Source: an uncultured Gammaproteobacteria bacterium (GTDB lineage: Bacteria; Patescibacteriota; Patescibacteriia; Veblenbacterales; UBA10138). From it: 64,000 nt of DNA. The notes under the pieces are model-generated. The model had not been told where the DNA came from and searched no databases. It saw only the letters and a program-made list of their open reading frames with translations. The stretch is taken from assembly GCA_964348825.1 (NCBI GenBank), contig CAYGDX010000002.1, forward strand, positions 15,489 through 79,488. The letters run 5' to 3'. Positions 3,685 through 40,848 of this stretch are shown piece by piece (position 1 is the first letter of the stretch; each line of letters starts with the position of its first letter). The position numbers and the translations under genes were made by a program.

Positions 3685-3955
3685 AGAATTAGCGAGATAA
3701 TATTAACCCAAACCTTAAAAAATGTCTATGCGTATAAAAAATAACTAAATAGACCTAAATGTATAAATCCGAAACTCTAATATCTAAATCCTAAATAAAT
3801 CCAAAATATTTAAATTTCTAATTCCTAATTTCTAAAAATGACTAATATCTAAACTCAAAATCTGAAATTAAATTTTAATTTCTAAATTTTAAACCAATTT
3901 TAAATGACTAAATGTTTTAAAATTAAAAATTTATAATTTAAAATTATCAATTACC

Positions 3956-12290: not shown

Positions 12291-15077
12291 ATGACACATC
12301 GTTATTTAACATTTTTTACATCACTTTTAATTATTATTTTAACACTCACCGACACAAAAACTTTAGCGCAAACCACCACACCGTTTTACTATGATCGCTT
12401 TGACACCAATGCTTTCCAATTGGTCGGACAAACCACAACCAGTCGTGATCGCATTCGACTTACGCCCGCCCAAGGTAGTAAAAAAGGTGCTATTTGGGAT
12501 TCAACCAAACAAGTTGTAAGCAAACAATTCACAGTTACTTACAAACTTCAAACTAAATATCAAGATACTAGAACTCGCGGCGCCGATGGTTTGGCTTTTG
12601 TAATTCAAAACGAAAAAATTAATGCCATTGGCTACGATGGCGGTAGTATGGGCATCAACATTACAAATAGTGTGGCTTGGCCTTGGGATACTTACTATAA
12701 TGTTGAATATGGTGATCGTAATCGCTTTCACTTGTGCTTACTTACCCGTGGCACTTTAATCAACAACCCCAACCATACCAACGCAATTTTTACTAGTGGT
12801 AGTTTAGCATCCGCGCCTGATACTAATATTCATTTAATTCGCTTAACCTATAATTACGGCAAAATAAAAATTTATTTTGAAGATACTACGCAGGCGTTGG
12901 GTACGACTTATTTGAATTTAAACACTGAACTAAATTTGGATTCTGGCCGGGCTTGGGTGGGCTTTACTGCCGCCACCGGTGGAATTGGCTGGCAAACTCA
13001 TGATATATTATTTTGGTCGTTTGACACTTTAATCAGGCCTCTTCACGAACCAGTAATCATAATTGGCGGTATTATGACTTCCCCACTTTATGATTCAGAA
13101 GATAGCATACTACTTGCGACTGAAAAAATCTGGGCAGACAAAAATCATTTACTCGTACAGCGTGATGATTTTTTACAAGTACTGGAGCTTGCTTCCGACG
13201 GCATAAATCCAGCCCAAAGTAATTATCAAATTAAATTTCCACCCCTTGCCACTACTCCACAAATTCCCACCTTGCAAAATGAGTTAGCCCGTTTACCATT
13301 ATCAACTTATCAACCCTTAGTTCAAGAACTAACTTTACGTGAAAAATATGTCTTGGATAATGGCGATAGTGATCACGGTGAAATGGAAGATTTATTTATC
13401 TTCACTTATGATTGGCGGAAAAGTGCGCAAGTTAATGCTCAAAGATTAAATTTATTGGTGGATAGCGTAATTAAGTGGACAAATTATAACCAAGTAAAAA
13501 TCGTGGCGCACAGTTTAGGTGGTTTGATTACTAAATCTTATGTGGCAGAGTACGGTAGCGATAAACTATCACGAATTGTATTTACTGGCACACCACATTT
13601 GGGCGCGCCGAAAATGGGTTACGTACTTTTAAGTGGCGACCTGATGGGACTATTGGGGTTCGCTGTAAATCACGAAATGATTAAAAATTTAGCGCGAAAT
13701 TTTCCCAGTGCTTATGAATTATTACCCAGCGCTAATTGGTTTAATTTCAGCGGCAATGGCCAAACTTTGAATTCTAATTTATATGGACAATATTTAATAG
13801 CGTCTCGGCAAACTTTGAGTAATTATCCAGCGACGATGAATTATTTAGTCAGGCGACAATTAAATGATGCCGCGGAATTTAACTCGGCACTAATTAATTC
13901 AGCTATCACTAATCAAAACTCTTGGACCAATGTAAACTTTGGCGCTACGGAAATTTATAATGTAGTAGGTTGTAATTTACCAACACCGGGCAGTATTATT
14001 ATTACTTCAGCAAACACTGTACCAATACTTAATTTAAACGGTGATGGTACGGTACCACTTGGTAGTGCGGAAGGAATTAATGATAATTCACGCGCCACAA
14101 TTTATTTATCTAGTGTAAAACATGATGATTTGTGTGCGAATGAAACTGCTGTAAAAATTATAGCTAAATTATTACGCAAAGTAGCTGACACAGTAACGGC
14201 TGGCTACCCATTGGCAAGTACTGTACCGCCAACTAGTTACGGCATAAATACAACTGCTACGCGAGTTGGTTCGCCAGTACTACTCCACGCTTACGATGCC
14301 GAGAATAACCACACTGGCCCAATTAACGATACAACCTGGGAAGCGCAAATTCCGGGGTCAAGTTTTGTGAGCGGTCCTTTGAACGATCCTGAGGCCAGTA
14401 AAATTATTTTACTACCCGCTGGTCAATCTTATCGCACCACTATTACTAATTTACTTGATACGGTATCTAATTTTGATTTATGGTCGCAAAATAATAGTAG
14501 TAATAACGCACCGCAAATAGCCATCTTTAATAATTTAACTTTAGAGAATGGCTCGTCAGCCGCGCGGAGTGATATAAATGAAACCGCGAGTGATTTGGAA
14601 ATTGATCAAAATGGCGATAATGATTACGAAACGATTATTACACCCATTACCAATTTTTCTAAATTACTTGATTCGGGTTGGAATTTAGTTGCCCTGCCAC
14701 TTAAAACCGGAAATGACAGCTTGCTCTCAATTTTTCCAAGCACTCTGCCTTATGGTTTTAGGTTTAATGGGCAATACATATCGAGTGAACAACTTGATTC
14801 AACTAGTGGTTGGTGGATAAAAATTAAAAATGACAACGCAATTGATTTAATTGGACAAAATTTCGCCTTAGACACAATTAATTTAATTAGTGATTGGAAT
14901 TTAATCGGCATTGGTTCAAAGTCAAAAATCGCTACCGAACTCAACACTCTACCGAACGACTTACTCAACAGCCAGTTCTTTAAATACCAAAATGGTTACT
15001 CACCGACTGACACTTTGTACCCTGGCTTTGGCTACTGGATAAAAGCTAAGCAAGCGGGGCAAATAATCCTGCGTTAA
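12291..15077 (+). CDS. secreted L-type lectin domain / alpha-beta-hydrolase (LCAT/PGAP1-like lipase) fusion protein
   Basis: 928 aa with a signal peptide. N-terminal legume-lectin-like block (RIRLTPAQGSKKGAIW ... ADGLAFVIQ). Central lipase nucleophile-elbow motif VAHSLGGLI followed by FTGTPHLGAP. The C-terminal ~350 aa is unassigned. Confidence 0.65.
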   Translation: MTHRYLTFFTSLLIIILTLTDTKTLAQTTTPFYYDRFDTNAFQLVGQTTTSRDRIRLTPAQGSKKGAIWDSTKQVVSKQFTVTYKLQTKYQDTRTRGADGLAFVIQNEKINAIGYDGGSMGINITNSVAWPWDTYYNVEYGDRNRFHLCLLTRGTLINNPNHTNAIFTSGSLASAPDTNIHLIRLTYNYGKIKIYFEDTTQALGTTYLNLNTELNLDSGRAWVGFTAATGGIGWQTHDILFWSFDTLIRPLHEPVIIIGGIMTSPLYDSEDSILLATEKIWADKNHLLVQRDDFLQVLELASDGINPAQSNYQIKFPPLATTPQIPTLQNELARLPLSTYQPLVQELTLREKYVLDNGDSDHGEMEDLFIFTYDWRKSAQVNAQRLNLLVDSVIKWTNYNQVKIVAHSLGGLITKSYVAEYGSDKLSRIVFTGTPHLGAPKMGYVLLSGDLMGLLGFAVNHEMIKNLARNFPSAYELLPSANWFNFSGNGQTLNSNLYGQYLIASRQTLSNYPATMNYLVRRQLNDAAEFNSALINSAITNQNSWTNVNFGATEIYNVVGCNLPTPGSIIITSANTVPILNLNGDGTVPLGSAEGINDNSRATIYLSSVKHDDLCANETAVKIIAKLLRKVADTVTAGYPLASTVPPTSYGINTTATRVGSPVLLHAYDAENNHTGPINDTTWEAQIPGSSFVSGPLNDPEASKIILLPAGQSYRTTITNLLDTVSNFDLWSQNNSSNNAPQIAIFNNLTLENGSSAARSDINETASDLEIDQNGDNDYETIITPITNFSKLLDSGWNLVALPLKTGNDSLLSIFPSTLPYGFRFNGQYISSEQLDSTSGWWIKIKNDNAIDLIGQNFALDTINLISDWNLIGIGSKSKIATELNTLPNDLLNSQFFKYQNGYSPTDTLYPGFGYWIKAKQAGQIILR

Positions 15078-15097: not shown

Positions 15098-15136
15098 AAA
15101 ACCCGAACAAAATATTTGTTCGGGTTTTTTATTTTT
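15098..15136 (+). terminator. rho-independent terminator
   Basis: AAACCCGAACAAAATATTTGTTCGGGTTT followed by a T-run, immediately after the 12291..15077 CDS. Confidence 0.8.
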
Positions 15137-15217: not shown

Positions 15218-15952
15218 TTATTCCATCTTACTTCTCTTCTTTTTCCTATGGTTTGTATTCAAATATTTATCCTCAACGAAATAATTAACAGCATAAATAA
15301 AACAAACTAGTCGCCACCAAAATTTGCTTATTTCTTTATAAGTTAAATTATCTCCAAAGCATATTTGGTGTACGTACTCATGTCTCTTTTCAAATAATGT
15401 TCCTACCTGATTTTTCCAATCTGGCAAATTAACTTTTAAGTGTAATTTTGTAACAGAAAAGAAATTTTTCTCTACCTTATTTAATCTATGTTGATGGTTT
15501 TCAACTTCTTCTAAAAAATTGCATTTCAATAGTTTGGAAAAAAATGAATCAATCGTTGTTAAATTTTCAAAAAGCCGATCAATTCCAATTAATTCGCTAA
15601 TTCTAATCGGCTTTCTTGACTTACGTGTTCTTAAGAGTTGATAAGCTTCCCAGATTGTTATTTTTTCTTCCAACAGTTTTTCTAAACCATCATTATTTTT
15701 AATAATCTTTATGTCAGGAATATTTTTTAGAAGATCTTTGAAATAAACTTCCGCGGCTGTAACTAAATTTATTACGTAATTTTTTCTAGCATTAATTTTT
15801 ATTGTTTTAGTTTTTGATTTTTTTTCGACTAAGTAAACTAGCCCTACAGACTCAGCAACCTTTTTGTAAAAAGTTGTAATTGCCTCAGGGCCTCTCTGTT
15901 TAAAAAAATTTCTTTCCTTTTCGATTTTTTTAAGTGCATCTGATAAATTCAT
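15218..15952 (-). CDS. hypothetical protein with C-terminal Rx4H (HEPN-like) motif; third gene of the candidate defence island
   Basis: 244 aa, AT-rich codon usage. FEKRHEYVHQ fits the HEPN Rx4-6H signature. No other recognisable domain. Confidence 0.4.
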   Translation of the reverse strand: MNLSDALKKIEKERNFFKQRGPEAITTFYKKVAESVGLVYLVEKKSKTKTIKINARKNYVINLVTAAEVYFKDLLKNIPDIKIIKNNDGLEKLLEEKITIWEAYQLLRTRKSRKPIRISELIGIDRLFENLTTIDSFFSKLLKCNFLEEVENHQHRLNKVEKNFFSVTKLHLKVNLPDWKNQVGTLFEKRHEYVHQICFGDNLTYKEISKFWWRLVCFIYAVNYFVEDKYLNTNHRKKKRSKME

Positions 15953-16192
15953 AGTAAAATTTTATGTCACCTAACATCTCGGGATATCTGATGTTTGCCG
16001 TAGCGTAGCGGAGACAAATATGGGTGGAGGCTTTTGTATAAAAGCCGTAACCAGATATGCCGTGTTATATGATGTATGCTTTTCTTTTTGTCTCGCCTCA
16101 GCGAGACCACTTTTCTGTAATGAACAAATTTTATTTTTGTCTTGGCGAAGGGGCAGAGGGGCTGGGGGTGAATGCCCCGAAGCCAAGACTCC

Positions 16193-17677
16193 TTATTTTC
16201 TTTCTAATTGCCACTTGTAAACTCTTTTAAGCTCATAAACAGTTATTTCTTCATTTTCTTCACATTCTCTCCCTAATTGTAATTGGATGTTATTCTTTGT
16301 TTTCCATGGATCCATTGAGCTTTCCAACAAGTCTTTTATTTTTGATTTAAAAATATTCGTTATTTGAACATAATTCTCGTCCGTTTCTTGGTCATCAATT
16401 AATATAACATCCTTGGGCTTCAAAAAGGAGTATTTATCGTTTATTTCATACAATGTATCAAATTGATATTCTTTAAATTTTTTTTTACTTTCTTCGTCCA
16501 AAATTATTTTTTTATCTGTATAGATCTTAGAAAACTTACCTTTCTTGAATGTTTTTGGAAAAATGTTAACTCTCTTATACTCATCTGTTAAATTTATCTC
16601 TTTACCATTTATTTTAAGTATGTTTCTGCAGCCTGAAAAAGGCCCCATATCTCCTAGAAAATCCACATAGAGATGTGGAAAATCACAGTAAGTATCCCCC
16701 TTGTCATCAATTAATGCGATGTCGGAGTATTTTATCAAACAATCAATAGTAAAATGACCTTTGTGTTTTCGTGGCAGAAAGTCCCAAAAATCATCGACGA
16801 GTTCTTTATTATCAGATATTTTTTTTCTCTCATCGTTATTATGCTCTCGTTGCAGATGAATCAAATCTACTTCTTTAGTAAAATCCCATTCTTTTTTTTC
16901 TGTGTCTATGTATGCAAAATATTCATGATTATGACACCATAGGCCTACTGGGTGATGACTAAATGCAACATATTCCTTCCAGCGAGGCTTTGTCTCAAAA
17001 TCTTTGTACTCCCGTTGATATGGATAATTTGTATCTTTAAGATCTCTCACTAAAACTGACTTATAAAATTGATGGCCTTCCCCAACGGTTCTGAATAATT
17101 TATTTTTTATACTTACCGCCGATCTGATTTCTGCTGTTTTGGACTTTCTTTTACTTACCAGTGAAATGCCAAAAAATGTGAAAAGTATCCTGTCATTTTT
17201 TGGTAAATGTAGCATGTCTTCCAGCTCTGCCTTTCCCCATAGATAAAATTCCATTACACCTTTTTCTCTAAGTTCTTTACGGAATATATCATATGATTCT
17301 TTAGAAAAATTAGCAGACGCGGCTAAGATATACCCATATGGCGGATTTTTTGCATCCACATCAGAAAGAATTGATTTTATTTTTTTTGGACCTATTTCTT
17401 TTTCTCTTTTTCCTTGAATCATCCATAAGTTTCCCTCCATAGGATGAATCAGTTCTTCTTCGACATTATTTTCGTTTTCGGAAGTAGAAATTATTTCAGC
17501 TTTTTCATATGCACGAATATCAAACCCACTATCGCTTCCGCTTCTCCCAGTAGCTTCAATATTCTGCCAATCTTTAAAATCATATATTAATTCTCGAATT
17601 AAATCCTCAAAGCGATGGGGGTCTAAATCCTCAAAATGTATGGGGTTGTATGTTCTTGTGATTTTAGCTTTTGCCAT
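16193..17677 (-). CDS. Mrr-type restriction endonuclease (PD-(D/E)xK) N-terminal domain protein with unknown C-terminal domain
   Basis: 494 aa. The N-terminus follows the Mrr_cat profile order: FEDLIRELIYDF ... ATGRSGSDSGFDI ... WMIQGKRE ... YILAASANFSKESYD ... EFYLWGKAELEDML. The C-terminal ~300 aa is unassigned. Confidence 0.6.
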   Translation of the reverse strand: MAKAKITRTYNPIHFEDLDPHRFEDLIRELIYDFKDWQNIEATGRSGSDSGFDIRAYEKAEIISTSENENNVEEELIHPMEGNLWMIQGKREKEIGPKKIKSILSDVDAKNPPYGYILAASANFSKESYDIFRKELREKGVMEFYLWGKAELEDMLHLPKNDRILFTFFGISLVSKRKSKTAEIRSAVSIKNKLFRTVGEGHQFYKSVLVRDLKDTNYPYQREYKDFETKPRWKEYVAFSHHPVGLWCHNHEYFAYIDTEKKEWDFTKEVDLIHLQREHNNDERKKISDNKELVDDFWDFLPRKHKGHFTIDCLIKYSDIALIDDKGDTYCDFPHLYVDFLGDMGPFSGCRNILKINGKEINLTDEYKRVNIFPKTFKKGKFSKIYTDKKIILDEESKKKFKEYQFDTLYEINDKYSFLKPKDVILIDDQETDENYVQITNIFKSKIKDLLESSMDPWKTKNNIQLQLGRECEENEEITVYELKRVYKWQLERK

Positions 17678-17746
17678 ATTTCTTAATTAATTGTGCTTTT
17701 TGGAAAATGTGGAGAGGTGAATGCCCCAAAGTTAAAGCTACTTCTT

Positions 17747-19951
17747 TTATCCTTTAGTGATCTTTTCAAGTTTACACTTCGGACAAGTGTATTTCGAATT
17801 AGTTCTGTCATTTACGCTTGACTGCCACTCATGGGAACAATTTGGGCAATGCCAAGATATTTTAATTCTGGAGCCACAAGTCATTAAATCAGCCGAATAA
17901 CCTTGTTTATCATTTTTTTCTTTGTCCCAATATTTCATTAAAATGGGATATTTTTCTTTTACAGACCCTCGATTTTTTAAGATCGTCTTTTTATAGGTAT
18001 CAGTTGATTTTTTTATACCACATAGCGGGCAACTACTTAAATTTCCTGTGGTTCTGTTTGCAATAGCTGTATTCCAAGAATGACCGCAAGTTTTACAAAT
18101 CCACCAAACTTTAATTTTACTGCCCGAATGAATTGTATAAGGATCAATATCTTTGTTTTTTTGAAAATCCCATTCTTTCATCAATTGCGAATTTTGATTT
18201 GCAATACTTTGACAAAATGGACACGTACCTTCACCTTTGCTTCTACTTTTGATAGTTGCTTCCCATTTGTGTCCTTTTATACATTTCCACCCTACTCGTT
18301 TTGAACTTCCTGGCGGATACTCCGTGGGTTCTTTTTTGTTTACCTCATAATCCCATTCTTTTAATAATTCAGGATGTTTATTTGCGAAAGTTCCAGTCTT
18401 TTTTATTCGTATCCCAGTTGCCCTTTCACTTCTATTGTTATTCATACAAATTGGACAACCATAGCCCTTTCCAGTTCTACTTCCAACAGAAGCTATCCAA
18501 CTATGACCAATTAGACACTTCCAATTAATCTTTAAAGAGCTCCCAGCGGAAATTTTATTAGGACTATATGTGTTCATTTCGTAATCCCATTCTCTTAACA
18601 TTTCTGGATGGCTCTGTGCGAATGAAATTCCCTTTTTTGTCAGCAATGATTTTCTCAAATTATTTCCTGCGTTGTCTCTATAGCAAATAGGGCAACCGGA
18701 GTTTCTTTTATGTCTATTTTTTATTGATGCCTCCCAAATATGTCCAAGTTTACATTTCCAATAAACTTTTTTCTCTGAATTTGCAGTAAACATATCCGGA
18801 GTCAGTGGATTGTTTTTTGCAAAATCCCACTCTTTAGCTAGTTCAGGATTAATAAATAGTAAACTTTCTTTCTCTGTTGGTGCTGGTAATAAAGATAAGG
18901 TTTTTTTGAATTCATTTTCTCCTATTTGAATTCTATCTAAAATATATTTATCAAATTTAAGTTTTGGATTAATTTTAGAAATAATTTTTAATACACCGAT
19001 CACTAAGTCAATATATTGAGTTTTTTTATCGTAGAGAACAACATCACCATCTATTTTGGGTAACAAAGAATCTCTAACTCTAATTAGATAAATATTGTTG
19101 TCCTTAAAAATTTTATGTTTTATTAAATCTCTTTCAAGTTTATTGTCGTGCCAATATGCACCATCGATTTCAATCCCAAAACCGTCATTTTTTAAAAGGA
19201 TGTCACATTCGTACCCTTCAATTTTTGACCTCCATTTAACATTTTTGAAAAGTTTACTCATTTCGCAAAGAATAAACACCTCTAATTTTGATGTTGAAGA
19301 TTTACAAAAAGGACAACCGCTATTATTTCCAGTTCTGTTATATATTTGGGCTTCCCATGTATGCCCAAATTTACATTTCCAAAAAGCATTTAAATTACTA
19401 TTAGGTGAAATATCATTGGGGTCTATTTTATTTTTAGCATAATCCCACTCAGTTAATAATTCTGGATGTTTTTTAAATAGAATTACTCCTGTTTTTTCTA
19501 ATCTAGCCTTCCTTATTCTTGCACCCTGATTTGTCCTAGAACATATAGGGCAACCATCGCCTCTAGATCTTCTTTGTGGGGTAGATTGCCACTCATGATC
19601 TTCTTTACATTTAAACCAAAAAAGTAAATGACTTTTCTCCGAGACACTTTCTGGTCTTAGATTGTTTTTAAAATAATTCCATTCAGATAATAGTTCTGGT
19701 TTTGCTTGAGCAAAAGAGAGTCCTTTCTTTAACTTACTTTTTCTTATATTTTCATTTTTTATTGGACTGTTGCATATTTTGCATCCATTACTTCTAATTC
19801 GACTAAAAAACGATACATGGTACGTATGTTCCTTTTTACATTTCCACCAAATCTTCTTTGTGCTTGTTTTGGATAGAATAGAAGGGTTAATACCAATATT
19901 TTTTGAATGGTCAAAGTCCTTTAAAATTTTTGAAAAATCTTGTTTTTCCAT
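17747..19951 (-). CDS. multi-zinc-ribbon (DUF4379-like W-C-GH-W-GCP-C repeats) protein with central DUF559/Vsr-like endonuclease domain
   Basis: 734 aa. About 10 repeats of the pattern (H)PEL..EWDY.KN ... W.C..GH.W ... GCP.C. A central block, YECDILLKNDGFGIEIDGAYWHDN ... RD ... IRVRD, matches the DUF559/very-short-patch-repair PD-(D/E)xK fold. Confidence 0.6.
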   Translation of the reverse strand: MEKQDFSKILKDFDHSKNIGINPSILSKTSTKKIWWKCKKEHTYHVSFFSRIRSNGCKICNSPIKNENIRKSKLKKGLSFAQAKPELLSEWNYFKNNLRPESVSEKSHLLFWFKCKEDHEWQSTPQRRSRGDGCPICSRTNQGARIRKARLEKTGVILFKKHPELLTEWDYAKNKIDPNDISPNSNLNAFWKCKFGHTWEAQIYNRTGNNSGCPFCKSSTSKLEVFILCEMSKLFKNVKWRSKIEGYECDILLKNDGFGIEIDGAYWHDNKLERDLIKHKIFKDNNIYLIRVRDSLLPKIDGDVVLYDKKTQYIDLVIGVLKIISKINPKLKFDKYILDRIQIGENEFKKTLSLLPAPTEKESLLFINPELAKEWDFAKNNPLTPDMFTANSEKKVYWKCKLGHIWEASIKNRHKRNSGCPICYRDNAGNNLRKSLLTKKGISFAQSHPEMLREWDYEMNTYSPNKISAGSSLKINWKCLIGHSWIASVGSRTGKGYGCPICMNNNRSERATGIRIKKTGTFANKHPELLKEWDYEVNKKEPTEYPPGSSKRVGWKCIKGHKWEATIKSRSKGEGTCPFCQSIANQNSQLMKEWDFQKNKDIDPYTIHSGSKIKVWWICKTCGHSWNTAIANRTTGNLSSCPLCGIKKSTDTYKKTILKNRGSVKEKYPILMKYWDKEKNDKQGYSADLMTCGSRIKISWHCPNCSHEWQSSVNDRTNSKYTCPKCKLEKITKG

Positions 19952-20210
19952 GTTTTTACTTTAAATAAATCGTTTTCGTAGTGGAGCGGAGAAAACACCT
20001 TATACCCCTCTTTAATTAATGAAAAAGAAATTTGAAGATTTTTTAAAATAATCGAGCGATAGCCCAGAAAAGGAATATTCCAGCTAACTCGTTTGTATGC
20101 GAGTAGATTAATGTTTAATGTTATTAAATTATATATTATGCGAATATAAAGTATTGTAAATATAATTTAATTGACTTTAATATAGCATATTTAAGTAAAA
20201 AAAATAACTA

Positions 20211-21215
20211 CTACTTAGGCACTAAATTCGTCGGCTGATCCGAGACAAACCCGTTAATATTTTCCACCGTAGTTTGTAAAATTCGCTCCACCGCCTCGCG
20301 ACTATTAAAAGCAATATGCGGAGTAATAATTACATCATCACGATCAATCAACATATGATTGCGCGCTAAAGTTTCCCAATTACACTTCTCTGGTAACAAC
20401 TTACTCATTAATTCCCTTTCCTCTTTAATTGTACACTCATCTTCCAAAACATCGAGGCCAGCACCTAAGAGAGTTTTGTTTTCTAAGGCCTGAAGTAGTG
20501 CTTTGGTATCTATAATTGCTCCACGCGCAGTATTAATTAAAAATGCACCTTTCTTAAATAATTTAAATTTGGCCTCATTTAAAAGATGATGCGTGGCTTC
20601 CATATATGGTACATGTACGGAGACAATATCAGATTTTGAAAGCAACTCATCCAGTGGTAAGTAAGTAAAACCAATTTTTTCGGCGAGTTCTGGTTTTGGC
20701 ATACTATCATAAACTAAAACATTCATTTGAAAGCCGCGCGCAATTTGTGCTACATTTTGCCCAATTCGCCCACCACCAATTATACCCAAAGTTTTACCCT
20801 GTAAATCAAAACCCATTAAGCCGTGATAATCAAAGATACCTTTTTCAGTACGCTCATAGGCCTGAAATATTTTGCGGGAGAGTGACAAAATTAAAGCAAA
20901 AGTATGCTCCGCCACAGTTCGCTCGCCATAAGCTGGTACATAACTAACGGCAATGCCACGCTTCTCACAAGCCGCTACATCTATATGATTAAAGCCCATT
21001 GAACGAGTGGTAATAAATTTTAAACCTGGTAGTTTGGCGAGCATTAATTCATTAACTTCTGAATAAACAAAAAGCACCAAAGTGTCGTAACCTGCCGCCT
21101 CTTCAATATGCTCTAAATTCAAAGCATGATCATAAAATTTTAATTCATGACCAGATAGTTGAGAAATTAAATAATCTTTTTCAAAATGTTCAACTTCAAA
21201 AATTGCTATTTTCAT
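20211..21215 (-). CDS. D-isomer-specific 2-hydroxyacid dehydrogenase (LdhA/PGDH-like)
   Basis: 334 aa. NAD-binding Rossmann motif GIIGGGRIGQNVA and the catalytic R/E/H arrangement of this family. Confidence 0.75.
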   Translation of the reverse strand: MKIAIFEVEHFEKDYLISQLSGHELKFYDHALNLEHIEEAAGYDTLVLFVYSEVNELMLAKLPGLKFITTRSMGFNHIDVAACEKRGIAVSYVPAYGERTVAEHTFALILSLSRKIFQAYERTEKGIFDYHGLMGFDLQGKTLGIIGGGRIGQNVAQIARGFQMNVLVYDSMPKPELAEKIGFTYLPLDELLSKSDIVSVHVPYMEATHHLLNEAKFKLFKKGAFLINTARGAIIDTKALLQALENKTLLGAGLDVLEDECTIKEERELMSKLLPEKCNWETLARNHMLIDRDDVIITPHIAFNSREAVERILQTTVENINGFVSDQPTNLVPK

Positions 21216-22813: not shown

Positions 22814-24997
22814 TTATAGTTTAAATCGTTTGAGACGTAAACTGTTGCTAACGACACTAACACTTGATAAAGCCATCGCACCTGCGGCAATAATCGGATT
22901 TAAAAATCCAAGCGCCGCGAGTGGCACGGCCGCTAAATTATAAACAAAGGCCCAAAATAAATTTTGTTTGATAATCCGAAATGTCTTTTTAGTTAAATAC
23001 AGCGCTTCGAGTACTTTAAGTGGACTGCCTTGCATTAGCACCATACCGCCGGCCTCAATCGCAATATCAGTACCAGTACCCATCGCGAGGCCTAAATCAG
23101 CTTGTACCAAAGCGGGCGCATCATTTATACCATCGCCCACAAAGGCAACTTTTAAATTTTCGGCTTGTATTTTTGCCACTGCCGCGGCCTTCCCTGCTGG
23201 TAAAATTTCAGCTAAGACTTCGGTAATACCAAGTTGCTTGGCAATGGCTTGACCAGTGCGCAAATTATCACCAGTCATCATTACCACCCGAATATTTTTT
23301 TTCTGCAAGGCGGCAATGGTAGCAATTGAATCATTTTTAATGGCATCAGCAATCGCAATCAAGCCCATCAATTTATTATCTTTTGCTACACCCACCACGG
23401 TTTTAGCTTCGGCTTCAAGCTGTCCAGTTGCGCCCTCAACATTCCCCAACACCACACCTTCATTTTTTAACCAACGTAAATTTCCCACTCTGATTTTCTT
23501 ATCACGAAGCAACGCACTTACGCCTTGACCAGAAATATTAATAAAGGATGACACTGTTTCACTTGCCAAATTTAAACTCTCGGCTTTATTTGCTACCGCT
23601 TGTGCTAAAGGATGCTCAGATAATTTTTCTAGAGCGTAGGCTAATTTTAAAACCGCTTCAATTTGGTAATCTGCTTGGGGCACAATATCAGTTACGATTG
23701 GTTTGCCTTGCGTTAAAGTGCCAGTTTTATCAAAAATCACAGCTTGAATTTTACTGCCTCGTTCTAAACTTTCAGCATTTTTAATTAATACACCGCGCTT
23801 TGCGCCAGTGCCAGTTGCCACCATAATAGCAGTTGGTGTGGCCAAACCTAAAGCACACGGACAAGCAATTACCAGTACCGCCACCGCCGACATTAAACCT
23901 TGATTTAAGTCACCGGTTGTAAAATACCAAACCGCTACTGTAGCCGCCGCGATTACCAAAATAATCGGCACAAAAATTCCGGAAATTTTATCAGCCAATT
24001 TTTGAATGGGCGCTTTTTTAGTTTGCGCTTCACTTACTACTTTTACAATTTGCGCCAGTACTGTGCCTTCGCCAACTTTTGTTACGATAATTGTAAGCAC
24101 TCCATTGATATTTAAAGTGGCACCAAAAATTTCATCACCTATTTTCTTACCCACTGGCAAACTTTCACCAGTTAACATTGATTCATCGACACTTGACTCG
24201 CCACTTAACACCTTGCCATCAATTGGAATTTTTTCACCGGGCTTAATTAATAATTTATCACCAATCATAACTTCCTCAATCGGCACTTGTTCTTCCTGAC
24301 CTTGTGCATTTATTCGCCGAGCGGTTTTGGCACCAAGTTCTAATAATTTTTTAATCGCCGCACTGGCTCGCCCCTTACTTTTAGCTTCTAAATAGCGGCC
24401 AAGTAAAATAAAGGCGGTGATAATTGCGCCGGTCTCAAAATATAATTCCATCCCACTATCAAACAATATCCACCAACTATAAAAAAACGCTGCTAAAGTT
24501 CCCAGTGAAATTAGCGTATCCATATTGGCACTAAAGTAGCGTAAACGCTTAAGTAGTCCTAAGTGAAATTCTAAACCAGTAACTATAATTACTACACTTC
24601 CTAAAATTGCTTGTAGCCACAAAGATAAATCGCGCTCCCAAAAATTCCAACCCAATTTAATTTCCGCCATAGCCAACACCGCTACCGGCACAGCTAAAAT
24701 TAAAGCGGTAATGGCTTTGTTTTTAATCGCTAAAATTTCCGCTTCATCTGCCGCATGATTATGCTCATCGTGTTCTCCGTGTTCAGTGTGTACTGCAACC
24801 TTGTAACCATTTTTAATCACTGCTTGATGTAATTCGTGTTCAGAAATTTTTGTATCATCAAATTCCACTTGGGCTTTATTTAAGGCTAAATTCACTACCG
24901 CTTCGGTAACACCCGGTAAACTATTTAGACTTTTTTCATTACGCACTGCACACGAAGCACAATGCATACCTTGAATATTAAAAGTAATTGATTTCAT
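22814..24997 (-). CDS. copA: copper-translocating P-type ATPase
   Basis: 727 aa. N-terminal HMA motif GMHCASC, a CPC motif in TM6 (ACPCALG), DKTGTLT, and GDGINDAP. Confidence 0.9.
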
Positions 24998-25044
24998 ATA
25001 AAAATACTTATTTGCTAATTTCGTTAAATTAACAAATAATAAAA

Positions 25045-25320
25045 TTAGACTCGATTGGATTGCTGGTAAATTTTCACAAGCTCCATGGTGGCAAGTTTTG
25101 CACCATCTTTTTTATGAAATTGATGCGCCACATGAGTTTTTAAATGATTTTCAAGTAACAAGCGTTCTAAACTTTTAAGCGCCTCACGCATGGCGAAAGA
25201 TTGCTCGAGTAGTTTGGTACAATAATCCTCGCGTTCAATGGCGCGGCTCAGGCCATCCAACTGACCTCGAATTATTTTCGCGCGATGAAGTGCACGTTTT
25301 TTGATTTTTTGGTCAACCAT
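25045..25320 (-). CDS. csoR: CsoR/RcnR-family metal-sensing transcriptional repressor
   Basis: 91 aa. [28 protein letters not shown] shows the DUF156 layout with the Cys and His ligand positions. Sits directly upstream of copA, co-directional. Confidence 0.8.
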
Positions 25321-25925
25321 AAATGTTAAGTTAAGAGTAAGAGCAAAGAGTAAGAGTTAATTTTAAATCCGAAGCACTAAATACGAAATCCGAAAATTTA
25401 GAATTTCGATATTCGCCTGCCTGCCGGCGAGGCAGGGATTTGGGATTTTTGTTATATACCCATTACCCCTATATCCTATTATAAGAAATACGACAAAAAT
25501 TGTCAAATGGGGTATCCACTTAAGCAACTAACCGATAATAAATATTAATCCTAGCAACGAGATAGCCGCCACGCCTGAAGCCACTCCAAACCAAAAAGTG
25601 AGTACGGGTGAGGCCTGAAGCCACCAACTCCCCTCATTTGAGGACGTGGGAGTATTATCAAAGTCGGGATCAAAAGTAATATGGGACATAATTAATTAAA
25701 ATCACTAATGACTAATATCTAATTTCTAAAAATCACCAAAACCTAAATCACAATTACTAAAATTAGTTATTAGACATTTTTAGAAATTAGTGATTAGAGA
25801 TTAGAAATTAAAACTCCTCTAAACTCCCGCCTTCCTCCTTCGCCAGAGGCTTCGGAAGGACAAGCCGCGGGAATGACCCCACTTCGCTTTTAGCTACGCG
25901 GGGCAAGCAACTACGCGCTACTAAC

Positions 25926-27563
25926 TTAACTTTTCGCCACCACTACTATCTGCCCTCGGTACATTCCCATTCCACAACTAAAAGTATAGCTCCCCTGTGC
26001 TTCGGGTGTAAAGGTTACTACATTATCATCTGTTGGGCGCAAAAATACTGGTTTCACTCCCAGTCGTGGCGCTTGTAAAACTGTTACGCAACCTTGTGCT
26101 CCGCGCGCATCTATCTCCCACCGCGCTGGCACACCCACTTGCAGTGTAAAAGAATCAGGCGCATAACCACCAGTAAACACTTTCATCTTCATTACTTGCT
26201 CACGACCATTAAAAGTTACATTGGAATCTTGAGCTGAGTCGGCCTGACTGGTTGACCAAAGCGCTGATAATTTTATTGGATAACCTAAAACTGTTAAACC
26301 ATTTTGAATATTCCATAGCCCGAGCACAAGTACAGTAGCACCAGCTAAACTAAAAAACCAATCACCTAATTTACCTTTGAGTGAGCCCGACACAAAACCA
26401 AGGGCGAGTAGTGCTGGTGCGGTACCCAAAGCAAAAACTCCCAAAATAACACCACTAGTTAAAGCGCTGCCAGTTGTTAGCGCATAAAGTTGTAGAGCTT
26501 GCGTAAAACCACAAGGCAAAAAGAAAGTACCGCCACCTAAAACAAACGGCACATACCACTGCGGTTTTCCTTGCGCATCCATTAATTTATGACCAATATT
26601 TTTTGGTAAACGCGGAATTATTCGCTTTAACCATTGGGGCGCTAAATTTAACATTTCAAGTCCCATTACCAACATAAAAATTGCGGCGAGTAGTGTAATT
26701 AAACCAGTTACCCAAGGCGCGGGCGTTAAAATTTTACCAACTAAACCAATCACGGCGCCGAGTAATGTATAACCAACAATCCGCCCCGCAATAAATAATA
26801 GTACCGGTTGGAGTTGACGCAACTTACTCGCATTTTGATATTTAGCGCGAAATGTACCAATCGTAGAAAGCATCAACCCACCAGCTACTGCCAAACAACT
26901 GGAGCTCGCTGCTACCAACCCTAAAATAAATACCGCCATTAAACTAGTAGAATTAATCGCCCCAACCGCCGGACTAAGGAAACCAAGGCGCGATAAAAAT
27001 CGGCCAACTAACAAAACAATTACAAACAAGCCAACTAATTTCCAAAAACTTGGGCGAGTGGAAACTTTATCTGCTTGATTTGATTGTTGATTAATATGAA
27101 GCACTTTGTATTCACTCTCACCTAAAGATTGTTGTAATTCGCTGACTGATAACTCTGCACCACTGCAAGTAATTTTAGCACGGCCAGTACTAGAATTAAC
27201 GCTAACTTTTTCTACGCCCGGAAGCTCGCGCCAACAACGTTCTACTGTCAACTCACAACTCCGACAATGCATACCTTGAATTTGCACCTCAACTACTTGA
27301 TGTGATGGCTGACTTGGAGCTGACGCTGGCACTTCATTTTTCAACACTTCAAAACTTAAATTAAATTCTACAAAAAGTTTATGCAACACTTCGGTGGTAA
27401 TTTCGTGTTCAGAAATTAAACGCACTACATTTTTTCCACGATTAACATCTATTTTTACCACCTTAGGTAAATTACGTAAAATTACTTCTACTTTCGACCA
27501 AACGACATTATCCAACTCCCCATTTAAACGAATTTTCTTAAGATAAATTTGTTCTTGTGACAT
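25926..27563 (-). CDS. HMA-domain / polytopic membrane (CcdA/TauE-like) / C-terminal cupredoxin-like fusion protein (copper handling)
   Basis: 545 aa. HMA motif GMHCRSCELTV, about 8 TM helices, and a C-terminal beta-rich domain ending FSCGMGMYRGQIVV. Confidence 0.55.
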   Translation of the reverse strand: MSQEQIYLKKIRLNGELDNVVWSKVEVILRNLPKVVKIDVNRGKNVVRLISEHEITTEVLHKLFVEFNLSFEVLKNEVPASAPSQPSHQVVEVQIQGMHCRSCELTVERCWRELPGVEKVSVNSSTGRAKITCSGAELSVSELQQSLGESEYKVLHINQQSNQADKVSTRPSFWKLVGLFVIVLLVGRFLSRLGFLSPAVGAINSTSLMAVFILGLVAASSSCLAVAGGLMLSTIGTFRAKYQNASKLRQLQPVLLFIAGRIVGYTLLGAVIGLVGKILTPAPWVTGLITLLAAIFMLVMGLEMLNLAPQWLKRIIPRLPKNIGHKLMDAQGKPQWYVPFVLGGGTFFLPCGFTQALQLYALTTGSALTSGVILGVFALGTAPALLALGFVSGSLKGKLGDWFFSLAGATVLVLGLWNIQNGLTVLGYPIKLSALWSTSQADSAQDSNVTFNGREQVMKMKVFTGGYAPDSFTLQVGVPARWEIDARGAQGCVTVLQAPRLGVKPVFLRPTDDNVVTFTPEAQGSYTFSCGMGMYRGQIVVVAKS

Positions 27564-40286: not shown

Positions 40287-40360
40287 TGGCAGGGGGTGAA
40301 GGAATCGAACCCACGCTAGAGGTTTTGGAGACCCCTGTACTACCATTATACTAACCCCCC
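40287..40360 (-). tRNA. tRNA-Trp (anticodon CCA), CCA encoded
   Basis: Hand-folded. Acceptor GGGGGGT/ACCCCCT, anticodon stem GGGGT/ACCTC with loop CTCCAAA, T-loop TTCGATT. The T-stem has one mismatch. Confidence 0.7.
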
Positions 40361-40374
40361 ATAAGTAGGCGCAC

Positions 40375-40530
40375 CTACTTCGTTTCTTTATGCATCGCGT
40401 GCTTCTTGCACCATTCACAATGTTTTTTCAATTCCAAACGTGTTTTCACTTTCTTCTTATTACGGAAGGTGTGATAATTGATGCGGTGACAAGCACTGCA
40501 TTCCATTTTTATAAGATTATCTTGAGACAT
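40375..40530 (-). CDS. rpmG: 50S ribosomal protein L33
   Basis: 51 aa, below the ORF-track cutoff. MSQDNLIKMECSACHRINYHTFRNKKKVKTRLELKKHCEWCKKHAMHKETK has the C4 zinc ribbon and typical L33 spacing. Confidence 0.85.
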   Translation of the reverse strand: MSQDNLIKMECSACHRINYHTFRNKKKVKTRLELKKHCEWCKKHAMHKETK

Positions 40531-40584
40531 AATATTAGAAATAATAAATAATAAAAATCATTATTACAAGCTTCGGTTTTTACA

Positions 40585-40660
40585 TGGAGCCGATGGTCGG
40601 GTTCGAACCGACGACCTACGGTTTACAAAACCGTTGCTCTACCAGCTGAGCTACATCGGC
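40585..40660 (-). tRNA. tRNA-Thr (anticodon UGU)
   Basis: GCCGATGTAGCTCAGCTGGTAGAGCAACGGTTTTGTAAACCGT ... GGTTCGAACCCGACCATCGGCTCCA, cloverleaf folded by hand. Confidence 0.85.
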
Positions 40661-40661
40661 G

Positions 40662-40749
40662 TGGTGGGTGGGATAGGATTCGAACCTATGAAGCCACGAG
40701 GGCAACTGGTTTACAGCCAGTCACGTTTGACCACTTCGTTACCCACCCC
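40662..40749 (-). tRNA. tRNA-Tyr (anticodon GUA), long variable arm
   Basis: GGGGTGGGTAACGAAGTGGTCAAACGTGACTGGCTGTAAACCAGTT ... GGTTCGAATCCTATCCCACCCACCA. Confidence 0.8.
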
Positions 40750-40775
40750 TACAAAAACATAATTTCTCCACCCTG

Positions 40776-40848
40776 AGCCGTTGATCGGAATTGAACCGAT
40801 GACCTACTCCTTACCATGGAGTTGCTCTACCAGCTGAGCTACAACGGC
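40776..40848 (-). tRNA. tRNA-Thr (anticodon GGU)
   Basis: GCCGTTGTAGCTCAGCTGGTAGAGCAACTCCATGGTAAGGAGT ... GGTTCAATTCCGATCAACGGCT. Confidence 0.8.

Follow-up and report, generated by a model that had tools for sequence, protein, structure and literature searches.

A DUF4379-array protein with a Vsr-like nuclease core, carried in an inverted-repeat cassette: a candidate mobile DNA endonuclease

What is the role of a bacterial protein in which a nuclease is set within a long string of zinc ribbons? The question is raised by a locus on contig CAYGDX010000002.1, from an uncultured bacterium of Patescibacteriota lineage, of which a stretch of 64 kb was analyzed here (the window; positions refer to it unless another locus is named). 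The locus is an intact open reading frame (ORF) of 734 amino acids (aa) on the minus strand at 17747-19951, exactly where a sequence-only reading of the window had placed it. It encodes three DUF4379 units, a nuclease core resembling Vsr and the EDxHD enzymes, and five further DUF4379 units, all of which, like the cassette features described below, are given on the minus strand. The best explanation, to which we give moderate confidence, is that the product takes part in genetic conflict as a mobile, array-guided DNA endonuclease, akin to homing endonucleases and either selfish or defensive.

The array is the most readily identified part of the protein. The product matches Pfam DUF4379 (PF14311) in eight stretches with 432 bits (E=1.3e-132), far above the gathering cut-off of 24.5 bits, and the treble-clef-type zinc ribbons proposed in the sequence-only reading are thereby upheld. 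The Pfam label of this family is "probable treble clef zinc finger." A scan for the motif W-x-C...H-x-W...C-P-x-C returned exactly eight units in the product, and no additional DUF4379 units lie elsewhere in the window. The motif and a unit size of about 55 aa had thus been recognized correctly, while the estimate of some 10 repeats with five or six on each side is replaced by eight, of which three precede the core (first zinc ligand at aa 38, 115, and 193) and five follow it (aa 400, 479, 557, 619, and 702).

On the N-terminal side, unit 1 (aa 6-62; 19766-19936) has a degenerate N-terminal half and the ligands C38, H42, C57, and C60; unit 2 (aa 83-139; 19535-19705) has C115, H119, C134, and C137, and unit 3 (aa 161-218; 19298-19471) has C193, H197, C213, and C216. 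On the C-terminal side, unit 4 (aa 368-425; 18677-18850) is the best conserved among orthologues, and it is followed by the fast-evolving unit 5 (aa 448-504; 18440-18610) and by unit 6 (aa 526-582; 18206-18376). Units 1 to 6 share the ligand pattern C..H..CxxC. Unit 7 (aa 588-646; 18014-18190) and unit 8 (aa 671-728; 17768-17941), the latter again fast evolving and with a weak match to CapR (E=0.021), contain an additional Cys and form the variant CxxC-x-H ... CxxC. Units are about 57 aa long and recur with a period of about 78 aa where they are joined by linkers of about 20 aa. Most linkers are basic helices of the form R-K-x-x-L-x-K-x-G with an isoelectric point (pI) of 10-11.7, and units 6 and 7 are separated by just 5 aa. 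The whole product is basic (pI 9.55, net charge about +56).

Conservation suggests that the repeats have been selected as zinc modules. When 33 full-length relatives with identities down to 36% were aligned, the four predicted zinc-ligand columns (Cys, His or Cys, Cys, Cys) proved invariant in all eight units across the 33 orthologues, with an entropy of about zero. The other invariant residues of the units belong to the scaffold: a Trp-Asp pair, Asn, Pro, Ser, Trp, and an Arg in the helix that follows the hairpin. As the eight units are only 29-51% identical to one another and a tandem repeat finder detected no DNA-level tandem repeat in the ORF, the array appears to be old rather than the product of a recent amplification. 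Each of units 1-4 and 6 resembles the unit at its own position in distant relatives more than it resembles the rest of its array; this does not hold for units 5, 7, and 8, which are more variable among orthologues.

Between the two sets of units lies a non-repeat core of about 150 aa (approximately aa 219-372), which includes the block ECDILLKNDGFGIEIDGAYWHDN ... IYLIRVRD (aa 248-295) that had been singled out from the sequence. The core comprises the nuclease fold proper (aa 219-307; 19031-19297) and a family-specific helical extension (aa 308-367; 18851-19030) with conserved Y336 and Q342 and an LPxP motif (L355, P356, and P358). This extension of about 60 aa is kept in all top family members and is absent from I-Bth0305I. 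An AlphaFold2 model of the core scored well (predicted local distance difference test [pLDDT] 90.6, predicted template modeling score [pTM] 0.82), and its best fold match was the homing endonuclease I-Bth0305I, followed by a DUF559 protein and then Vsr. The sequence points the same way, the core profile matching that of I-Bth0305I (PDB 3r3p) at E=5e-5. In Pfam, the core of the product itself matches neither DUF559 (PF04480) nor Vsr (PF03852), whereas among 34 cores of the family, 30 match REase_MTES_1575 at E ≤ 0.01, 15 match DUF559, and 2 weakly match Vsr. The assignment to a Vsr/DUF559 PD-(D/E)xK nuclease made from the letters was therefore right as to the kind of nuclease and its catalytic pattern, and a DUF559 profile does detect part of the family, but the core stands nearer to the EDxHD homing endonucleases than to DUF559.

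The residues expected of such an active site are all present. In 33 to 34 relatives with identities down to about 30%, S221, E224, E248, D250, D263, H268, K278, and R293 are invariant, and E261, G264, W267, D275, and R291 are nearly so. Alignment to E. coli Vsr with hhalign places D250 at D51, E261 at the position of Phe62, D263 at H64, and H268 at H69, although this register is statistically weak (E=0.032, probability 1.6%). It nevertheless agrees with our alignment to I-Bth0305I and with the mapping published for that enzyme, which has E170, D196, N208, H213, and D222 and, where Vsr has Phe62, a conserved acidic residue (PMC3239194). The equivalence of E224 and D250 to residues of the EDxHD set is based on pattern and fold. 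Taken at the level of sequence, the core is a Vsr/EDxHD-type PD-(D/E)xK nuclease with one intact predicted active site.

As the catalytic positions have remained invariant or nearly so over this range of divergence, they are likely to be under selection for catalysis. This bears directly on the idea that the protein is a non-catalytic nucleic acid binder, a regulator or structural protein retaining a nuclease-like fold. Some Vsr-like and RAP domains are indeed catalytically dead, which lends the idea general plausibility, while nothing in our results supports it directly; given the conservation of the catalytic positions across the relatives, we regard it as very improbable.

How the nine domains are placed relative to each other is left undefined by the full-length model, in which the domains are well folded (pLDDT 85.8) and the pTM is only 0.40. 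The notion that the ribbons might form a solenoid around the nuclease is consequently unsupported, and the low pTM would argue against any defined arrangement. A simpler shape would be that of beads on a flexible string, which might become ordered on the substrate.

The architecture had also been considered unusual, a view that does not survive a wider search. A word-indexed search returned more than 1100 matches to the product, and an exhaustive search with the core profile gave, as clusters at 50% identity, 565 at E ≤ 1e-30, 3603 at E ≤ 1e-10, and 17,396 at E ≤ 1e-3. The layout of array, core, and array recurs in nearly all of the best 120 full-length matches, with 4 to 15 units, and the closest clade mostly has 3+5 units, while in the wider family the core may occupy any position from the N to the C terminus. 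Species-representative genomes contributed 61 loci from more than 15 phyla.

Relatives are also numerous on mobile DNA. The family occurs in 140 plasmid records, where the sole annotation is "zinc-ribbon domain-containing protein," and in 89 phage records, where most relatives are minimal and consist of one unit plus the nuclease, as in gp39 of Listeria phage A511. A viral structure library yielded 211 significant matches from giant viruses and phages, labeled "restriction endonuclease," "treble clef zinc finger protein," "homing endonuclease," or "CapR homology domain protein." Many of the 61 bacterial loci come from amoeba-associated lineages (Legionella, Berkiella, Parachlamydia, Simkaniaceae, Dependentiae, and Francisellaceae). 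As a side observation to which no statistical test was applied, the family seems over-represented in amoeba-associated bacteria, among them at least eight Legionella, and in amoebal giant viruses (loci L007-L067 and BFVD matches), which suggests that it is exchanged inside amoebal hosts.

If the protein worked with a dedicated partner, its gene would be expected among the neighbors, and clustering of the flanking ORFs at more than 60 loci revealed no conserved partner gene. In the window, the immediate neighbors encode a 494-aa protein of the Mrr_cat type and a 244-aa HEPN (RiboL-PSP-like) protein; both were considered as partners and rejected, being absent from all 64 of the other loci. A Pfam and PADLOC census of 89 adjacent ORFs likewise showed no dominant family and instead a scatter of mobile-element and defense genes, including recombinases, primase-like and terminase-small-subunit-like genes, OLD/GajA-like ATPases, and a transposase. 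The sole recurrent neighbor is an Sf6-terminase-small-subunit-like gene (also PADLOC PDC-S31) located directly upstream in four Legionella species (L050, L059, L061, and L062). Orthologues that are 72-73% identical are found in three unrelated contexts, which together with the broad distribution shows the gene to be horizontally mobile. The block at 15-20 kb of the window has a G+C fraction of 0.32-0.34, compared with 0.37-0.41 in its surroundings.

The same neighborhoods speak to a housekeeping function in Vsr-type repair, in which the protein would nick T:G mismatches arising from deamination of 5-methylcytosine. Such a function would accord with the Vsr-type fold and active site and with the JGI label "very-short-patch-repair endonuclease" that several relatives carry. 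No Dcm-like methyltransferase gene is present in the window, however, and one is nearby in just 1 of the 64 other loci, so that, together with the lack of a conserved partner, a repair role becomes unlikely. Considering further that the Vsr profile fails for the product and is weak in the two relatives that it does match, that the distribution is patchy and mobile and extends to viruses and plasmids, and that a DNA-binding array would be superfluous for Vsr, we consider this the least credible of the alternatives, with hardly any weight left to it.

What is new here is that the DUF4379-Vsr gene of the closest clade is carried by a cassette whose ends are conserved and whose inverted repeats measure about 75 nucleotides (nt). 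When the window is compared with the P0001 loci, the DNA is 77.7% similar over 2399 nt, from 151 nt upstream of the start codon to 31 nt past the stop codon. At L004 the gene is flanked on both sides by inverted repeats; a conserved element of about 85-95 nt, inversely oriented, brackets the gene in L004-L006, and L003 has the element on the downstream side. The repeat cores measure about 75-80 nt and are about 80% complementary. In L004-L006 the cassette is minimal, with the DUF4379-Vsr gene alone between the inverted repeats (5856-8450 in L004); further copies lie at 3819-7700 in L081 and 2328-5890 in L086.

The copy in the window extends from about 15972 to 20146. Its left (5') module of about 150-195 nt (19952-20146) ends at the start codon and contains an inverted-repeat core (20003-20091) that scores 54 bits with a hidden Markov model (HMM) and has diverged in this copy. 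The right (3') module of about 215-221 nt (15972-16192) is 96-98% identical to those of L081 and L086; it contains the other inverted-repeat core (16060-16156; HMM score 70 bits) and a GC-rich hairpin right after the last cargo gene (16139-16189; -13 kcal/mol, z = -3.35). Since this right repeat copy is located after the Mrr-like gene, the cassette of the window holds two genes, the second being the Mrr_cat-type restriction-endonuclease-like gene at 16193-17677. No further repeat copies were found in the window, no Rfam family matches the cassette ends, no clear target-site duplication was seen at the cassette, and the inverted-repeat cores alone show no significant folding. The HEPN-like gene (15218-15952, minus strand), whose product has a sub-threshold RiboL-PSP match (E=5.6e-5), starts about 20 nt past the right end of the cassette.

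The modules keep their positions regardless of cargo, the left one reaching the first start codon and the right one following the last gene. In L081, from a Patescibacteria metagenome-assembled genome (MAG), and in L086, the same ends surround DnaJ-like, TPR, and Mrr-like genes, so that the left module precedes an unrelated first gene, and the contexts of these cassettes differ again, one example being a position directly after groES-groEL. The Mrr-like gene alone, with weak repeat remnants, is found in L083-85. Its product, which weakly matches PADLOC PDC-M58A, has 10 members at ≥90% identity on different contigs, one of them from a Patescibacteria MAG, whereas the housekeeping proteins of the contig are singletons, and the Mrr-like gene looks recently mobile. 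Flanking inverted repeats are not a general trait of the family: at 47 distant family loci they were not above the same-orientation control, and the pattern was unmatched in viral contigs.

The left end may also reveal how the cassette moves. In L004-L006 and L086 it carries the sequence ATTTCGTATA(T/G)-7 nt-TTATATGAAAT, which agrees at 10 of 11 positions each with the XerC and XerD arms published for Acinetobacter (arms from PMC12907356). With at most 2 mismatches in 22 positions, this dif-like site occurs at the left end in these loci only, giving two cassette copies with a significant site, against a chance expectation of 0.007 per simulation. It is degenerate in the window copy and in L081, and the right end has a XerD-like arm only. 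Such a site suggests that a Xer-type recombinase acts on the cassette in trans. A tyrosine recombinase near the cassette was seen in L081 only, where a XerC/D-like enzyme is encoded at 1903-2724, 1.1 kb upstream. At 3780-3836 of the same locus, the terminal stretch of a right module (some 55 nt) is repeated, in direct orientation and immediately next to the left inverted repeat; this layout hints at adjacent modules or an array.

It could be supposed instead that the protein is itself the mobility nuclease, recognizing the cassette ends or the empty site, and that cassettes with other cargo are its non-autonomous derivatives. The minimal cassettes, which hold this gene only, and the sharing of the same ends by cassettes with other cargo would fit, and eight DNA-binding modules might span a site of tens of base pairs. 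Yet strand transfer is beyond a PD-(D/E)xK nuclease alone, the distant loci lack flanking inverted repeats above the control, no empty site was found, and the dif-like site directs attention to a recombinase in trans. As the same ends also carry cargo where the nuclease gene is missing, the nuclease is probably not the mover of its cassette, and we think the proposal quite improbable.

Placed together, these results lead us back to an array-guided DNA endonuclease in genetic conflict. The enzyme would be metal dependent, with E224, D250, D263, H268, and D275 as its putative active site and E261 as an extra acidic residue. The eight DUF4379 modules and the basic linkers, arranged 3+5 around the nuclease, may serve to place this active site along an extended stretch of target DNA. 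With one active site the enzyme would be expected to nick DNA, and a double-strand break would require dimerization, as in I-Bth0305I. The gene would act without a dedicated partner and move horizontally, in the closest lineage as cargo of the inverted-repeat cassette. We infer DNA as the substrate because the nearest characterized relative is a DNA endonuclease, as are, by annotation and occurrence, all the viral relatives, and reading of specific sequences by the array, like the biological role, is proposed in the same spirit. Homing-like selfishness is suggested by the lineage of the nuclease and by the way it has spread among phages, giant viruses, and plasmids, while defense is suggested by its status as cargo interchangeable with an Mrr-like restriction enzyme; on present evidence these two roles cannot be separated.

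Several observations count against this proposal. The core of the product reaches just 19.7 bits against REase_MTES_1575 (PF18741), for a cut-off of 38.2, and the literature yielded no experimental work on an architecture of DUF4379 array plus Vsr-like domain. The gene is free-standing, in neither an intron nor an intein (no intron RNA family from Rfam was detected at 15900-20300), and no empty target site was identified. Relatives of the flanking 2-hydroxyacid dehydrogenase do occur at four loci without a DUF4379 gene, but they are only 63-65% identical and the genes downstream differ. Homing is accordingly not demonstrated. No family of PADLOC-DB 2.0 models the product (0 families), so that the defensive part of the proposal rests solely on the neighborhood. 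The recurrence of the cassette ends around cargo lacking the DUF4379-Vsr gene counts against the proposal as a whole, in that the nuclease is probably not the mover of the cassette.

A further set of observations is adverse to DNA as the substrate and instead consistent with an RNA-directed protein, the array of which would bind structured RNA while the Vsr-like domain cleaves the RNA or merely grips it in the manner of a RAP domain. The only solved structures with DUF4379 belong to kinetoplastid mitoribosomal or assembly proteins, namely, mS66 (E=1.5e-7), mt-SAF33, and 6yxx_E2; the solved domains are thus from an RNA context. The RNA-binding RAP domains resemble the core fold almost as closely as Vsr, and RAP/FASTK proteins are described in PMC11879112 as combining a repeat array with a Vsr-like domain. 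The mitoribosomal proteins and the RAP-domain matches together keep an RNA function a real rival. Against it, the closest match in both sequence and fold is a DNA homing endonuclease, the full catalytic set of the DNA enzymes is conserved, and in phages and giant viruses the relatives have both the annotation and the occurrence of DNA endonuclease genes. We therefore judge an RNA function unlikely, if less so than the other alternatives.

If DNA is indeed the substrate, it is conceivable, though we would put only limited trust in the idea, that the DUF4379 units and their linkers constitute a modular and evolvable DNA-recognition code, with a few base pairs read by every unit. The conserved units 1-4 might then dock the nuclease, and the fast-evolving units 5, 7, and 8 might retarget it; positional orthology and the unit-specific conservation are compatible with such a view. 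Were this code to exist, these proteins would be natural counterparts of zinc-finger or TALE nucleases, and module specificity, once worked out, could yield a new modular DNA-targeting scaffold. More generally, the proposed endonuclease function would reveal a very large group of nucleases, targeted by strings of zinc modules and common to bacteria, plasmids, phages, and giant viruses, and could explain what lies behind the common annotation "zinc-ribbon domain-containing protein." Of the two, the cassette is a more unexpected result than the protein. In it, nuclease genes (DUF4379-Vsr and Mrr-like) are swapped as cargo between conserved ends in genomes of Patescibacteria appearance, a likeness judged from the near-identity of cassette genes to those of named MAGs.

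The window contains some other features. At 12291-15077 on the plus strand, a gene for a 928-aa protein with an N-terminal hydrophobic leader combines a legume-type lectin domain with an LCAT-like lipase/alpha-beta hydrolase domain, a eukaryote-like combination. Between this gene and the convergent HEPN-like gene, a hairpin with a perfect 14-bp stem and T-runs on both strands (15098-15128) is probably a bidirectional terminator. A copper- or metal-handling cluster on the minus strand (22814-27563) encodes a heavy-metal P-type ATPase with an HMA domain, a CsoR-type repressor, and an HMA-DsbD-cupredoxin fusion. The tRNA cluster Thr-Tyr-Thr-Trp at 40287-40848 (minus strand) leaves only about 225 nt from the second tRNA-Thr to tRNA-Trp, with no tuf in this interval; a tuf gene between tRNA-Thr and tRNA-Trp is a common bacterial arrangement.

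Comparison with known systems shows the gene product to be a variant of a recognized kind of protein. With I-Bth0305I, the EDxHD prototype (PDB 3r3p; PMC3239194, PMC2677866), it shares the catalytic order E...D...x...H...D and an additional acidic residue two positions before x. As in EDxHD homing endonucleases generally, a nonspecific-looking nuclease domain is joined to separate DNA-binding modules, and free-standing genes and phage relatives occur. I-Bth0305I resides in a group I intron and has its nuclease at the C terminus, behind two N-terminal NUMOD motifs, whereas here the nuclease is central, has eight DUF4379 ribbons distributed over both sides and a helical subdomain of about 60 aa, and is encoded in a cassette on a bacterial chromosome with no intron or intein. 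Position x is an Asp (D263), in contrast to the Asn or His of EDxHD/Vsr enzymes. E. coli Vsr, DUF559, and REase_MTES_1575 are more distant, the sequence matches being weak or absent and the Dcm partner lacking here; Vsr has its own DNA-recognition elements, while the product described here has external arrays.

The combination of such modules with an EDxHD/Vsr domain is already known from a 2025 paper on homing-endonuclease genes of phage introns, which have three to five CapR/DUF4379/DUF723-like modules and for which thousands of unannotated relatives form a large unrecognized outgroup (PMC12350094). Like those genes, the present one combines a Vsr-like nuclease with zinc-ribbon-like modules some 60 aa long, and it evidently belongs to that unannotated population. 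It differs in being free-standing and in having 3+5 modules with the nuclease in the middle, where the published genes, located within phage group II introns, encode three to five modules and then the nuclease at the C terminus.

For the cassette, the closest comparison is with the dif modules of Acinetobacter (PMC12907356, PMC13141974). Both are discrete units bounded by inverted repeats, have no transposase, carry variable accessory cargo, and occur in different contexts. The cassette has repeats of about 75 nt, compared with 28 bp in dif modules, a central region of 7 bp in its dif-like site, compared with 6, and a chromosomal location in a Patescibacteria-like host, where dif modules are found on Acinetobacter plasmids. 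The cassette therefore resembles dif modules, with membership not established, and its dif-like site suggests that Xer-type exchange of modules extends beyond Acinetobacter plasmids.

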